Positions 29,336 to 37,110 are shown, counted from the first letter of the stretch. The stretch is 46,987 bases of DNA from an uncultured Erysipelotrichaceae bacterium (GCA_902767375.1 CACXGV010000048.1:1-46987); one strand, 5' to 3'. Numbers and translations are program-made. The notes: a model not told the origin generated them from the sequence alone.

Positions 29336-31423
29336 CTATCCAGCACAGTTACTATCAGAATTACAGCTAGCTGTTGGAATTGAATCTTTTAAGCAGCCCC
29401 AAACTATATATCTATATTGATATGATGAACCCCATGGTGCAGTCCAAGATATTGGCGTCACTAATTCGTAATACATATAATATGGGTCGCCAGATGGTCC
29501 ACCATCCCTTTGGGTTCCTTGAACTTTATTTGGTTTTACAATTTCACTTACTTTAAAGACATTATTTTTTGTATAGCATTGTCCACCATCTCCACCTGAG
29601 CAGGATATGTTTCCTAGTGTTTCGTGTACGTTTGCATTACCTTGTACACACCAGTACATTGTTTTATTGCAAGAACCTGTATTACATGCTGTACCAGTAT
29701 TTTGTGTTTCAGTAGCAGTACCTGAGCACGCTGTTGTATGATCATAAGCTGATCTTTTTGAGCAAGTACGGTATTGATATTTGGTGCCGCCACCACAAGG
29801 AATGGAACAGCTAGACCATGTCCATGATCCGCAATTATAATTTTCAGTTGAAGCACAACAGCTTTGTGTATTACAAGCAGAGCCACCGCTTGATTGGTCT
29901 TTTGAAGAGCATCTTTCGCCAGAATGAGAATCGTATGCTAATCTATTATATGTTCCGCTGCCACATACTTTTGTACAAGTGGTGCCATCACTATATCGGA
30001 CATCATTACATGTTGTGTCTTTACTTAGAGTATCAGATATATTTCCGGCTTTATCTCTTGCAAATAAGTAAACTGTCCTTCCTGGATGTGGGTTGGTCAC
30101 TGATAGATTCCCTGTATTTAAAGGGGTTGAACCAGTATAACTTGTCCATGAACATCCCGTTGGATCATTTACATCAATTAAGCAATAAGAACCGATTCCA
30201 CTTCGGTCATCCTTTAAGGCAAATGTAACTTGTGATGTTGTAGCTGACATACTAGCAATTGTTGGTTTAGTTTTATCAATTTGGCCAACAACATCTAACC
30301 CAGCTGTACAGTTGCCCAATTTATCACACGCTCTAAAATAGCGATGATGAACTCCTTCGGTACTCATTAAATAATTTGATATAGTTTCATCATATGAATA
30401 ATCAAACCAAGTTGAATTATTTAATGACATTTGATACTTGTCGAATCCAGAATGTGCATCTGCTCCACCACTTGGTGCAGGGTTTGCTTGAGTTCTAGCA
30501 GCATATAAGTTTTGATTAGTCCATCCACCAGAATGAACTGTACCGTTACTGTAGATGAAATTCATATTTATTGCATTTGGGGGAGTATTATCTAACCAAT
30601 ATGTTCCCGTTGATACTTTAGTTTGGGCGGCATTATTTTGACGATCTTTTATATTTGGAATAATCCATAAGTAATATTTACCAGTTAAATCATTATTTGA
30701 TACTGTAGTTCTTACTTCAGCTCTTGTTCCTTCATTATAAGTAAGGGATACAGTACTGGATAACTGAGATGGTTGAACTGTATTTGAAGTACTCCAACCG
30801 TATTTAAAATTTCCTCCAGCGGCTAAACCACTATCGACATCTTGAACTATTACTATTACATTTTGTTTTTTAGCCCAGTTAGTGTTGGTTTCAATATCAA
30901 ATCTAATCATTGGAGGTACACTTTCGGAGAATAATGGTGCTGTGGTTGCCTCTCTAGTAGGATTTGTATAAGTTATAGGTGTTTTAGTGGTATGAGTATT
31001 TGCTCCTGTACCAATTGTAAATATTCTTTTATATTTGTTATATACTACTTGAACAGTATCATCGCTCATATCACTATCGTCAACTGGATTTAAAACTTTG
31101 TTATTTTTATCATATGAAATTAAGGAATTTTCAGCAAGTTCTCTAAATGTAGCATGACAAATTAGATTATCTCCGTCACTTTCACATCCATGGTTTACTC
31201 CAACAATACAATCTTTACCGGTGGTATCCATGAAACATTTTTCATTTTCTTGGCTCCACATTAATAATGATTTTTCAGCTGAAGATACTTTGGTTTCAAG
31301 AATATTTCCTTTTATTCTAGCACTTGTTTGTTGGATTAATGGCACTGCGATAACAACAATTAGGCCTATTAATACTATAACTGCTAACAATTCAACTAAA
31401 GTAAAACCCTTATTAGTTTTCAT
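29336..31423 (-). CDS. Large type IV prepilin-like adhesin P1: pilin head, Ig-like stalk, 2 TSP1-like repeats, unique C-domain
   Basis: G|FTLVELL with E5 and P22; DNTPP/DKTKP and DKAGN Ig-like motifs; WTWSSCSIPCGGG...R..C. Confidence 0.85.
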   Translation of the reverse strand: MKTNKGFTLVELLAVIVLIGLIVVIAVPLIQQTSARIKGNILETKVSSAEKSLLMWSQENEKCFMDTTGKDCIVGVNHGCESDGDNLICHATFRELAENSLISYDKNNKVLNPVDDSDMSDDTVQVVYNKYKRIFTIGTGANTHTTKTPITYTNPTREATTAPLFSESVPPMIRFDIETNTNWAKKQNVIVIVQDVDSGLAAGGNFKYGWSTSNTVQPSQLSSTVSLTYNEGTRAEVRTTVSNNDLTGKYYLWIIPNIKDRQNNAAQTKVSTGTYWLDNTPPNAINMNFIYSNGTVHSGGWTNQNLYAARTQANPAPSGGADAHSGFDKYQMSLNNSTWFDYSYDETISNYLMSTEGVHHRYFRACDKLGNCTAGLDVVGQIDKTKPTIASMSATTSQVTFALKDDRSGIGSYCLIDVNDPTGCSWTSYTGSTPLNTGNLSVTNPHPGRTVYLFARDKAGNISDTLSKDTTCNDVRYSDGTTCTKVCGSGTYNRLAYDSHSGERCSSKDQSSGGSACNTQSCCASTENYNCGSWTWSSCSIPCGGGTKYQYRTCSKRSAYDHTTACSGTATETQNTGTACNTGSCNKTMYWCVQGNANVHETLGNISCSGGDGGQCYTKNNVFKVSEIVKPNKVQGTQRDGGPSGDPYYMYYELVTPISWTAPWGSSYQYRYIVWGCLKDSIPTASCNSDSNCAG
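29669..30010 (-). repeat. P1 Cys-rich repeats: one 51-aa type A and one 63-aa type B
   Basis: Same units as in P2 and P3 (CTKVCGSGTYNRLAY; NYNCGSWTWSSC). Confidence 0.85.
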
Positions 31424-31438
31424 ATTATCACCATTCTA

Positions 31439-34696: not shown

Positions 34697-34757
34697 ATAA
34701 TACAATATTTTTAAATCATAGTAAAGAAAAAACTAACTTATTTTAAGTTAGTTTTTT
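34697..34757 (-). promoter_or_regulatory. Terminator + promoter cassette upstream of P2
   Basis: AAAAACTAACTT-loop-AAGTTAGTTTTT hairpin, then TTTACT-17 bp-TATTAT. Confidence 0.7.
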
Positions 34758-37110
34758 ATGGACAATAATAGCAAATGTAATAACTTCCCGCATTTGAACA
34801 CCATGTATTAGAATAACTTATGTAGTAGCAAACGGGATTACAGTTAAAGTTAAATCCGCTATCATAATAAACACTATTACTTCCGCATGGATTACAGCTT
34901 TGAGTGTTACATGTAGAATTTTCGTATCGTTTTTCGGTTGCTGTTCCTGAACATGCTGTTGAGTGGTCATATGCTGATCTCTTTGAGCAGGTACGTTTTT
35001 GATATCTAGTTCCTCCATCACATGATGCTGTACAACTAGTCCATGACCAATTCCCACAATTATAGTTTTCAGTTTTTGTGCAGCAGCCTTGGGTGTTACA
35101 AGAAGTTCCTTCACTTCGTTTTTCGGTTGCTGTTCCTGAACATGCTGTTGTATGATCGTATGCTGATCTTTTTGAGCAAGTACGGTATTCATATTTTGTT
35201 CCACTTCCACAAGATTTGGTACATGCTGACCATGACCATGATCCACAGTTATAATTTTCGGTTGAATCACAGCAACCTCTTGTATTACATGCTGATCCGC
35301 CACTTGAAGAATCTTTTGCTGAGCATCTTGAACCATCATAAGATGAGTATGCTAGTCTATTATATGTTCCGCCTCCACATGCTTTAGTACATGTAGTTCC
35401 ATCTTTATAGGTTACACTTGAGCAGCAGTCCATTGAATTACACACTGATCCACCTGTTGAGGTGTCTTTTGCTGAACATCTAGTTCCGTCATATGCTGAG
35501 TATGCTAAACGGTTTTTAGTTCCACCGCCACATTTTTTAGAACATGTGTCTCCATCTTTATAAGTTACACTTGAGCAGCAGTCCATGGTATTACATGCTG
35601 ATCCACCACTTGTTTTATCTTTAGCAGAACATCTTGTGGTTTGGACGTACTTATCATATGCAAGTTGGTTATAAGTACCGCCACCGCACTTCTTAGTACA
35701 TGTTGTTCCGTCTTTATAGATAATCTCTTCACAACTTGTGTCTACACTCTTAGATGCAGAAATATTTCCAGCTTTATCTTTAGCAAATAAATATACAATT
35801 TTACCTGGATGTGGATTGTCAACTGTTATATTACCAGTATTTAAAGGAGTTGAGCCAGAATAATTTATCCATGATGTACATTTGGATGAATCATTTTGAT
35901 CTATTAGACAGTATGAAGCGATTCCACTTCTTTCATCTTTTAAGGCAAAAGTTACTTTTTTAGTATTCCCTGTAAAGCTTGCAATGGTTGGTTTGGTTTT
36001 ATCAATATGAGCAGTTACTGTTGTTGCTGCACCACAATTTCCAACCTTATCACAAGCTCTAAAATATCTACTTGTATCTCCTTCAATTGTTATCTTATAA
36101 AGTGTATTGGTATGGTCATATAAATAATCTATCCAATCTGTATTATTTATTGATATTTGGTATTTCTTAAATCCACTATGAGCATCTGCTCCGCCACTTG
36201 GTTCTTTAGCAGCTTGAGTTCTAGCAGCATAAACATTTTGGTTAGTCCATTCACCATTATAAGCGGCCCATGATCCATAAACAAAATTCATTGTTACATC
36301 AGCTGGGGCGGTATTATCAAACCAATATGTTTCAGTTGATACTTTTCTTGTTATTGTTATTCCGTCTATATTAGTCATATTTGGCTGTACCCATAAGTAG
36401 TACTTACCAGTTAAAGACTCATTATAGGCTTTGAAGTTTACTTCAGCATCTTTAGATGCGTATTTTAGAGATACATTTGTGTATGATGAAGGTTCATTAC
36501 TATTTGCTGACCATCCATACTTTACAGTACCTCCTGGCGCTAGTCCACTGGTTCCACCATGAATTGTAACATCTACTTCATGATGCTTTGACCAAGTACT
36601 ATTACCATCTGGATCTAATGTAATTTCGGGAACTTCAAAGATTTTTTTAGTAGTTATAATATCTGTGTGAGGATTTGATAAACTAAATTTACGATTAGAT
36701 TTATTAAAGAAAATAACTATTTCTTCATTATTCATTGATTCATTAGTTACTGGGTTTGTAATAATTTTTTTACTATTATCATCATAGTTTATTAAACCGT
36801 TTTCAGCTAATTGTTCATAGGTAGTACTACACTTTAAAAATTCATTTTTATTTCCATAATCTTCACAATGATTACCTACTCCAACAATACAGGTATCATT
36901 GCTAATGGAATTTGTTAGAAAGCATTCAATGTTATCTTGGGCCCAAAGTAAAAATTGCTGACCGGAAGTATTTCTTTTTGTTTGAAGCATTTTTTCTCTA
37001 GCATTTTTGTCTGAATTATTTAAGGCACTTATTATAATAATAGCTAAAATTCCTATTATTACAATAACAGCAAGAATTTCAACTAAGGTAAATCCTTTTC
37101 TATTTTTCAT
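34756..37110 (-). CDS. Large type IV prepilin-like adhesin P3, tandem paralog of P2
   Basis: G|FTLVEIL; same architecture as P2; near-identical from the end of the first Ig-like unit onward. Confidence 0.88.
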   Translation of the reverse strand: MKNRKGFTLVEILAVIVIIGILAIIIISALNNSDKNAREKMLQTKRNTSGQQFLLWAQDNIECFLTNSISNDTCIVGVGNHCEDYGNKNEFLKCSTTYEQLAENGLINYDDNSKKIITNPVTNESMNNEEIVIFFNKSNRKFSLSNPHTDIITTKKIFEVPEITLDPDGNSTWSKHHEVDVTIHGGTSGLAPGGTVKYGWSANSNEPSSYTNVSLKYASKDAEVNFKAYNESLTGKYYLWVQPNMTNIDGITITRKVSTETYWFDNTAPADVTMNFVYGSWAAYNGEWTNQNVYAARTQAAKEPSGGADAHSGFKKYQISINNTDWIDYLYDHTNTLYKITIEGDTSRYFRACDKVGNCGAATTVTAHIDKTKPTIASFTGNTKKVTFALKDERSGIASYCLIDQNDSSKCTSWINYSGSTPLNTGNITVDNPHPGKIVYLFAKDKAGNISASKSVDTSCEEIIYKDGTTCTKKCGGGTYNQLAYDKYVQTTRCSAKDKTSGGSACNTMDCCSSVTYKDGDTCSKKCGGGTKNRLAYSAYDGTRCSAKDTSTGGSVCNSMDCCSSVTYKDGTTCTKACGGGTYNRLAYSSYDGSRCSAKDSSSGGSACNTRGCCDSTENYNCGSWSWSACTKSCGSGTKYEYRTCSKRSAYDHTTACSGTATEKRSEGTSCNTQGCCTKTENYNCGNWSWTSCTASCDGGTRYQKRTCSKRSAYDHSTACSGTATEKRYENSTCNTQSCNPCGSNSVYYDSGFNFNCNPVCYYISYSNTWCSNAGSYYICYYCP
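34894..35733 (-). repeat. P3 tandem TSP1-like repeats (A,A,A,B,B; 280 aa)
   Basis: Same repeat units as P2, offset about 2.43 kb. Confidence 0.9.

Follow-up and report, generated by a model that had tools for sequence, protein, structure and literature searches.

Introduction

What gives type IV pili their binding specificity is an open question, to which modular pilins are the current answer. In a modular pilin the pilin part carries a grafted functional module, which the filament then displays (Raynaud et al. 2021, PMC8179133). In Streptococcus sanguinis, PilB with its vWA module and PilC with its lectin module are pilins of this kind that serve in adhesion (Raynaud et al. 2021, PMC8179133; PMC9934059), and only these two kinds of module have been studied. 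In CofB of enterotoxigenic Escherichia coli and TcpB of Vibrio cholerae a pilin carries extra beta-rich domains on a linker; these proteins are thought to be located at the pilus tip and to function in binding (PMC8179133). Here we describe three long paralogous proteins, P1, P2 and P3, encoded in a contig of 46,987 bp (C48; CACXGV010000048.1 of assembly GCA_902767375.1), which was analysed over its whole length and is called the window below. The contig belongs to a metagenome-assembled genome (MAG; 1.05 Mb in 76 contigs, 86.8% complete, GC content ~27%) of an uncultured rumen anaerobe with a small genome. P1–P3 are probably modular type IV pilins; most likely they are minor pilins with an adhesive function, and a stalk of thrombospondin type-1 repeats (TSRs) or TSR-like repeats is predicted for them.

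No pilin has so far had a TSR module characterised. No description of a TSR-bearing pilin was found in the literature on thrombospondin in combination with prepilin or type IV pilin. The architecture IPR012902-IPR000884-IPR000884, which has two TSP1 repeats, occurs once in Dataset S1 of PMC8179133 and is undiscussed there. The locus is a compact natural experiment, in which a single scaffold is combined with two lengths of stalk and several tips within a 1-Mb genome.

Results

Pilin signal, scaffold and pilus machinery

P1, P2 and P3 all open with the sequence MK..KG/FTLVE (MKNKKG/FTLVE, with the slash after the leader), in which the leader ends in Gly and is followed by Phe at position +1 and Glu at position +5. 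The profile PF07963 (N_methyl) matched the three proteins with 25.5–30.6 bits (29.8 bits for P2; cut-off 21.2) and TIGR02532 with 25.2–26.1 bits (cut-off 16.3). The leader is followed by a hydrophobic alpha-1N helix of ~20 residues, LAVIVVIGIVAIIVV, and in a phmmer search of PDB sequences with P2 the N-terminal helix matched the pilin N-termini of PilE1 (8pfb), MshA and geopilin. From residue ~150 to residue ~460 the proteins contain repeated D.xGN...ID.T.P motifs, which point to a series of immunoglobulin-like (Ig-like) beta domains, and P3 matched an OmpL47-type barrel profile (40.8 bits, cut-off 40). As in a modular pilin, the pilin module is followed by an added region, here of the OmpL47-type/Ig-like kind, and then by TSP_1 repeats. 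The architecture predicted for the whole protein is a class III signal peptide, the alpha-1 helix, a pilin head, Ig-like domains, a TSR stalk and a cap rich in Cys and aromatic residues.

The same MAG encodes an assembly ATPase of the PilB type (T2SSE, 410 bits, contig C68), PilC (two T2SSF matches on C46, 100 and 82 bits), a prepilin peptidase (Peptidase_A24 on C46, 46.9 bits), whose gene adjoins that of PilC, and several small pilins of 150–165 aa on contigs C43, C46 and C75.

The window also contains a Tad-like operon (7300–13660), with a TadE-like gene (13313–13660), a ParA/CpaE-like ATPase, a CpaF-like ATPase (10862–12187) and two T2SSF genes (9179–10845); a 221-aa protein with a prepilin signal is encoded at 7300–7965. 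Two more small ATPase-based clusters resembling type IV filament systems are present on C35 and C18, which makes a striking total for a 1-Mb genome.

Repeat anatomy and identity of the stalk

The original prediction, made from the sequence of the window alone, had described P1 as one A repeat, one B repeat and a 110-aa C-domain with 6 Cys, and P2 and P3 as A+A+A+B+B with a Cys/Tyr-rich tip of 43–45 aa. We set the unit boundaries by cutting the C-terminal parts at the CC junctions, which reproduced all three layouts to the residue, with units of 51–52 aa (A) and 63 aa (B) joined at CC (Table 1). The stalk thus has 2 units in P1 and 5 in P2 and in P3, the layout of P3 being that of P2 except for its 45-aa tip. 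Identity among A units ranges from 59 to 98% and among B units from 68 to 87%. Tandem Repeats Finder scored the arrays at 442–523, with repeat periods of 153 and 189 bp, and the repetition is far beyond chance.

Four lines of evidence bear on the identity of the units, namely Pfam profiles, the match to thrombospondin-1, AlphaFold models and Foldseek. The TSP_1 profile (PF00090, gathering cut-off 21.6) matched the B units of P1 and P2 with 23.4 and 27.6 bits, respectively; P3 scored 21.1 bits by hmmscan, yet 26.7 and 22.2 bits in a six-frame search. Residues 455–783 of P2 matched TSR2-3 of human thrombospondin-1 (3r6b, E=6.5e-9, phmmer against PDB sequences), and unit A3 of P2 aligned with TSR1 of thrombospondin-1 in entry 7yyk. 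AlphaFold2 models of P2 and P1, built from homolog alignments of 51 or 54 rows, showed all A and B units confidently, with predicted local distance difference test (pLDDT) scores mostly >90. When the P2 model was compared with the PDB by Foldseek, the top 12 matches were all TSR proteins, led by properdin (E=4e-5), thrombospondin-1 and semaphorin-5A and including BAI1 and F-spondin; the P1 model likewise had only TSR proteins at the top and matched thrombospondin-1 TSR2-3 at E=1.7e-5. The fold predicted for the units resembles the elongated, three-stranded one of solved TSRs. The template-modelling scores were low for both models because these are long multi-domain rods.

The A and B units share a CxxxCGxG core. 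The B unit has 8 Cys, SWSW..C (WxW) and R.Q.R.C, a shortened form of the WxxWxxW and RxRxR Trp-Arg ladder, and is predicted to be a TSR with an extra disulfide pair in addition to the shortened ladder. The A unit has 6 Cys, Y.DG and a single Arg; being without Trp, this 6-Cys derivative is best called TSR-like. Overall, both unit types are predicted to be thrombospondin type-1 or type-1-like repeats. The TSR rod of P2 is mildly basic, with a net charge of +11.

Comparison with known systems

The proteins fit the known class of modular pilins. Like PilB and PilC of S. sanguinis, they have a class III signal peptide, a pilin module and a C-terminal module, and they occur as several per genome in a monoderm host. 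In contrast to PilB and PilC, P1–P3 are much longer, with Ig-like domains, 2–5 TSRs and a cap; their genes lie outside a pilus operon and are followed by one for a small membrane protein, and the paralogs, with tips that have been reassorted, number at least 6. The succession of a pilin domain and extra beta-rich domains is shared with CofB and TcpB; however, these are type IVb pilins of diderms without Cys-rich repeats, and no sequence relationship with P1–P3 was detected.

Eukaryotic TSR arrays, such as those of thrombospondin-1 (TSR1-3: 1LSL, 3R6B, 7YYK), properdin, semaphorin-5A and the apicomplexan proteins TRAP and CSP, resemble the stalks in sequence (by homology), in the predicted fold and in the CxxxCGxG core. 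They are tandem, rod-like arrays used in extracellular adhesion, and the arrays of P1–P3 are likewise tandem and rod-like. The differences are that P1–P3 are bacterial, that the B unit has WxW instead of WxxWxxW and 8 Cys, that the A unit lacks Trp, and that the units of P1–P3 abut at CC; the eukaryotic glycosylation machinery is not expected here. What sets P1–P3 apart within the modular pilins is the multi-TSR stalk, the tip repertoire spread over many paralogs and a conserved downstream partner gene.

Homologs, distribution and further paralogs

A word-seeded search found 149 homologs; the figures given here rest on the 120 listed. Most of the 120 have the prepilin motif and many have precomputed TSP_1-family matches; one NCBI homolog, from a 'Bacilli bacterium' MAG, is annotated as a prepilin-type protein. 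Hidden Markov models of the A and B units, built in this analysis, detected units in 65 of the 120 proteins (P1–P3 included), in 17 different orders, among them A, AA, AB, AAA, AAAA, AAB, ABB, AABBB, ABAB, ABBA and AAAAB. The tails that follow the units in these 65 proteins are 43 to ~330 aa long.

The TSR domain is rare in prokaryotes. The TSP_1 profile had no match in 14 control prokaryotic genomes; of 400 genomes drawn from the whole phylum, 3 had matches, all three from the family of the window. The P2 stalk was matched in 7 of 301 genomes of the order, again all in the window's family and with genomes of 0.8–1.3 Mb. The pattern GFTL[VI]E, which is generic for pilins, retrieved for the most part unrelated pilins of many different phyla and was not used for distribution.

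The genome encodes at least 6 giant-pilin paralogs, at least 3 of them on contigs other than the window. Contig C3 (2247 bp) holds the C-terminus of a fourth pilin (P4), a gene for a 258-aa protein (orf258) and the start of a fifth pilin (P5). The fourth pilin corresponds to homolog P0010 (729 aa), with A+B and a 51-aa tip of a third type. This second locus is located 3' of argS and consists of a pilin of the P0010 type, orf258 and another pilin (loci L071–L073). Alternative contigs with the order argS-P0012-orf223 (L071, L072) close on themselves; P0012 (752 aa) has a tip of probably a fourth type. The MAG itself has the third type (P0010) and probably the fourth (P0012) on C3. P0010 and P0012 are 100% identical over ~400 N-terminal residues, and their tips are unrelated. 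The second locus could reflect either real recombination or an assembly loop.

A sixth paralog, at the start of C52 (C52:2-1870), is 54% identical to P1 across residues 37–464 and has a Cys-rich, non-TSR C-terminus that matched no Pfam family. The idea that the C52 paralog contains a Listeria-Bacteroides (Flg_new) repeat was dropped because Pfam gave no match.

Tips

The tips of P2 and P3 (tip II) are of one type, NPCGSNSVYY...YYICYYCP, and that of P1 (tip I) is of another. Structure prediction of both types, suggested with the original prediction, was carried out for P1 and P2: the stalks were modelled with confidence, and the tips reached a pLDDT of only ~40, so that Foldseek was uninformative on them. 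An exhaustive phmmer search of 1.84 billion representative proteins with the P1 tip retrieved P1 itself alone, and BLAST of both tips against the 120 listed homologs gave nothing significant. Two short ending motifs recur. A P2-like ending, ...Y.YFKYCP, is present in 8 proteins (among those listed, P0007, P0008, P0034, P0056, P0068 and P0072), and a P1-like C-terminal motif, C..C..CxG, in ~8 (among those listed, P0009, P0017, P0018, P0022, P0036, P0038 and P0074); beyond these motifs the tips are unrelated. Given the low pLDDT of the tips and the lack of a relative of the P1 tip, the role of tip exchange in ligand specificity, also proposed originally, can at most be inferred.

Strain comparison and stability of the repeats

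The locus was compared with five short-read assemblies from other samples (L006–L010). L006, an independent 100-kb contig, is 99.79% identical over 12 kb and contains all four genes (P1–P3 and the gene for a 273-aa protein, orf273) with zero indels. P3 is complete and of unchanged length in L007 (99.94%), as is P1 in L008–L010 (98.8–99.2%); in L008 and L009 the final 188 residues of P2 are present too, their units and tip unchanged. Contigs from short reads are prone to end within P2, in the part that is 90–97% identical to P3, and L007–L010 break in or beside it; the whole of P2 is covered independently by L006 alone. Between strains, P1 has 12 synonymous changes and 1 nonsynonymous change, and P3 has 2 and 0, respectively. 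Gene lengths and tips are identical in these five assemblies, which diverge by 0.06–1.2%. In this small sample, the fixed repeat numbers and tips that the original prediction had named as evidence against it were thus observed.

Units at the same position are alike in P2 and P3 (A1 96%, A2 94%, A3 98%), whereas A1, A2 and A3 are 69–78% alike when compared with each other; the AB core of P1 is the counterpart of A3-B1 in P2 and P3. The positional orthology of the P2 and P3 units indicates that the array is older than the split of P2 and P3 or the conversion between them. Within one gene the units share 75–78% of bases, so that short reads can distinguish them, and an assembly artefact is unlikely. 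Since no length change was seen between strains and the units within a gene have diverged, the arrays are old and stable, a product of ancient shuffling under purifying selection. The proposal that expansion and contraction of the repeats is an ongoing way of tuning the proteins was not supported: gene lengths did not change, the units are only 69–78% alike and the changes are mostly synonymous. The modularity on which it was based did stand, as unit number and tips vary among the paralogs and the ~65 homologs and the mosaic paralogs reassort them; modules have been gained, lost and exchanged in the course of evolution, although not as rapid tuning. A contingency locus with variable tandem repeats was rejected on the same grounds, with units sharing 75–78% of bases and equal gene lengths in the five assemblies.

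At the nucleotide level P2 and P3 are ~60–70% identical over the first 250 codons and mostly ~85–97% thereafter. This pattern mirrors that of P0010 and P0012, in that a diverged 5' part is combined with a 3' part that is alike. The window differs from L006 at 25 positions, 21 of which lie within a patch of ~190 bp in P2 (Table 1); here P2 of L006 is 100% identical to P3, versus ~90% for P2 of the window. The patch is either a tract of P2 converted to the P3 sequence or the product of an assembler swap. Taken together, the block patterns of P2/P3, of the patch and of P0010/P0012 point to exchange between tandem paralogs, by recombination or conversion; assembler swaps could explain the patch and the P0010/P0012 cases.

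Candidate partner gene, expression signals and layout of the locus

P3, P2, orf273 and P1 are encoded in this order on the minus strand, flanked by engB/ysxC and der. P2 and orf273, which follows it at a distance of 19 nt, are probably co-transcribed, and orf273 is a candidate cognate partner of the giant pilins. Its paralog orf258 (C3:1127-1903), 37% identical, is found 3' of P4. A database search with orf273, which belongs to no Pfam family, gave just 2 matches. In other genera the giant TSR proteins that were examined, nearly all with a prepilin signal, are followed by an N-terminally anchored protein of 176–233 aa without Pfam match (L062 7287-7910 and 10295-10897; L063 10471-11172; L065 8684-9214; L066 2609-3145). 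Partners from one genome are homologous, and those of L065 and L066, which are related genomes, share their ending; for most pairs from different genera no similarity beyond the transmembrane segment was detectable. The partner evolves very fast, orf273 having just the 2 database matches.

Poly-Thr linkers were seen in two membrane-anchored proteins of the window, orf273, where the linker (TTTTTTTTT) follows the transmembrane segment, and a 319-aa protein (27000–27959) with long linkers, whose gene overlaps the end of der.

P1, P2 and P3 each have an almost identical cassette on their 5' side, with a terminator hairpin, CTTTAC(T/C), a 17-nt spacer, TATTAT, GGTG and the ATG; this motif occurs only five times in the whole MAG, and at the second locus the corresponding cassette consists of a hairpin and TGGTATAAT instead. 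As the same cassette stands 5' of each gene, each giant pilin forms an insulated transcription unit of its own, and gene and promoter were duplicated as one. The separate cassettes and the ratios of synonymous to nonsynonymous changes between strains (12:1 and 2:0) argue that the genes are functional.

The GC content of the P1–P3 genes is 34–36%, compared with ~27% for the genome. The excess is located in the second codon position (GC2 0.48–0.52), and GC3 is 0.19–0.20 against 0.12–0.19 in neighbouring genes. The raised GC content thus reflects amino-acid composition and not recent import, and a foreign origin of P1–P3 was rejected.

Table 1. Features of the P1–P3 locus. Positions are those of the window; residue numbers refer to the respective protein.
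Feature	Position	Strand	Description
Cassette 5' of P3	37111..37175	-	terminator hairpin, TTTACC-17-TATTAT promoter-like site, GGTG ribosome-binding site
P3	34756..37110	-	784-aa predicted modular type IV pilin; mature ~85 kDa, 48 Cys; open reading frame and profile matches
P3 A1-A3	35272..35733	-	residues 460-613; three 51-52-aa TSR-like units without Trp
P3 B1-B2	34894..35271	-	residues 614-739; two predicted 63-aa TSRs, WxW, 8 Cys
P3 tip II	34759..34893	-	residues 740-784, 45 aa, 6 Cys, 9 Tyr
Cassette 5' of P2	34682..34755	-	same parts; also terminates P3
P2	32330..34681	-	783-aa predicted modular type IV pilin; mature ~84 kDa, 48 Cys; open reading frame and profile matches
P2 patch	33116..33302	-	codons 460-522, ~190 bp
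P2 A1-A3	32840..33301	-	residues 461-614 (A1 461-512, 52 aa; A2 513-563, 51 aa; A3 564-614, 51 aa); pLDDT mostly 88-97
P2 B1-B2	32462..32839	-	residues 615-740 (B1 615-677, B2 678-740, 63 aa each); thrombospondin-1 TSR2-3 and Foldseek matches
P2 tip II	32333..32461	-	residues 741-783, 43 aa, 6 Cys, 9 Tyr, isoelectric point 4.1
orf273	31489..32310	-	273-aa N-terminally anchored single-pass membrane protein, 19 nt 3' of P2
Cassette 5' of P1	31424..31488	-	same parts; also terminates the P2-orf273 unit
P1	29336..31423	-	695-aa predicted modular type IV pilin; mature ~75 kDa, 28 Cys; open reading frame and profile matches
P1 A unit	29858..30010	-	residues 472-522, 51 aa; nearest A3 of P2/P3 (71-73%); pLDDT >95
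P1 B unit	29669..29857	-	residues 523-585, 63 aa; nearest P2 B1 (83%)
P1 tip I	29339..29668	-	residues 586-695, 110 aa, 6 Cys; orphan domain

Interpretation

The assignment of P1–P3 as paralogous modular pilins, which we regard as probable, is based on the domain make-up, TSR homology, predicted fold, pilus machinery, mosaicism, purifying selection and separate promoter cassettes; from these we infer incorporation into pili, adhesion and a role of the tips. The prepilin peptidase would cleave P1–P3 after Gly6, and the PilB/PilC machinery would then insert their alpha-1 helix into a pilus whose subunits are the small pilins encoded elsewhere. The giant pilins would probably be located at the pilus tip or be sparse along the fibre, where the rigid TSR rod and its Tyr/Cys-rich cap would be displayed and could bind a surface ligand. 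Diversity would arise from old duplications of units and from recombination between tandem paralogs, which would reassort the N-terminal scaffold with respect to stalk and tip; fast repeat slippage would not be its source. Type IV pili are micrometre-long. Each TSR reportedly measures ~5 nm in the crystal structure of thrombospondin-1, and three extra TSRs would add roughly 15 nm. As the pilins would ride on such long fibres, the reach that the original prediction had held to be tuned by repeat number is a weak rationale, and the number of repeats more plausibly affects avidity, rigidity or spacing.

Several points weigh against this assignment. The genes for the pilus machinery are unlinked to the P1–P3 locus, and polymerisation of a pilin of 75–85 kDa is a predicted step. 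The A units are without the Trp ladder that defines canonical TSRs, and neither tip gave a confident model. The strain sample is small and short-read, with one other full-length P2. The Cys counts of P2 and P3 imply ~24 disulfides per protein, and no VKOR, DsbB or DsbA-like protein (Thioredoxin_4) was detected in the MAG, which, being 86.8% complete, does not prove their absence. As these proteins were not detected, the oxidised TSR fold, which in canonical TSRs has six conserved Cys paired in three disulfides, is an assumption.

The unlinked machinery genes, together with a size far beyond that of typical pilins, would also fit surface adhesins that are never polymerised and use the prepilin signal as a membrane anchor and export route only. 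Stalk length would then set the projection of the tip, and reach would matter since the rod has to span the cell wall. Each giant pilin gene or pair is followed by that of a small membrane-anchored partner, which could act at the membrane, and one relative (L065, 427 aa) has TSR motifs and an ordinary-looking signal peptide without the pilin motif. We nevertheless consider this explanation unlikely. In most of the 120 listed homologs the motif is complete, with Gly at -1, Phe at +1 and Glu at +5, and the alpha-1 helix is conserved, which is expected only if cleavage and filament packing matter, and the 50-kDa PilB of S. sanguinis does enter pili (PMC8179133).

The mosaic relation of P2 and P3, the patch that equals P3 in one strain and is ~90% identical to it in the other, and the P0010/P0012 mosaic beside argS recall the patchy exchange between pilin paralogs in Neisseria pilE/pilS. 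The locus might thus be a variation system in which conversion of P2 by P3 or the reverse (and likewise for P4 and P5) keeps producing new surface variants to evade phage, predators or host immunity, which we regard as improbable. In contrast to pilE/pilS, all copies appear expressible: each is full-length, with a promoter, ribosome-binding site and start codon of its own, which leaves no silent cassettes. Conversion makes P2 and P3 more alike rather than more diverse, the strain differences are almost all synonymous, in line with purifying selection, and the patch and the P0012 contigs (L071 and L072, which close on themselves) could be assembler swaps. Antigenic variation of the pilE/pilS type was accordingly rejected, as the three genes share the promoter-like cassette, ribosome-binding site and ATG and promoterless cassettes are absent. 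That the repeat numbers or the P2/P3 duplication themselves are products of short-read assembly has very little credibility. The breaks of L007–L010 in or beside P2 and the 90–97% identity of P2 and P3 over ~1.5 kb are what such an artefact might produce; however, L006, from another sample, repeats all four genes without an indel, units within a gene are only 75–78% identical, the reading frames are uninterrupted and evolve under purifying selection, and homologs in other genera carry 1–5 such units.

If P1–P3 are modular pilins, multi-TSR arrays, usually an adhesion device of animals and apicomplexans, are placed on bacterial pilins in one uncultured, host-associated lineage of Bacilli, which is relevant both to where the TSR fold arose in evolution and to the way in which bacteria with reduced genomes attach to partners. 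The 48 Cys of an exported protein also pose a biochemical puzzle in an anaerobe without recognisable disulfide machinery. A wider reading joins four propositions and is, as a whole, tentative and rather doubtful. The TSR-stalk pilins and their fast-evolving anchored partner would form an undescribed adhesion module nearly confined to one family of ~1-Mb Bacilli of gut and rumen; the at least 6 pilins with reassorted tips would let these bacteria latch onto specific partner cells, be they other microbes, rumen protists or host epithelium; the TSRs would go back to an ancient cross-kingdom transfer or to a bacterial origin of this 'animal' adhesion fold; and the ~24 disulfides per protein would be formed by an unrecognised route, possibly involving the partner protein.

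Other genes

Three paralogous proteins of 520–560 aa are encoded at 14932–16608 of the window, at C43:1563-3131 and at C35:6460-8055, with the N-terminus MDKKAKNT.IVSVIALALVLIGVTYAYFSARITGLESAS. The protein of the window has weak, sub-threshold Pfam matches to camelysin (Peptidase_M73), at its N-terminus, and to DUF6273. The N-terminus of these paralogs presumably resembles TasA-type signal peptides.

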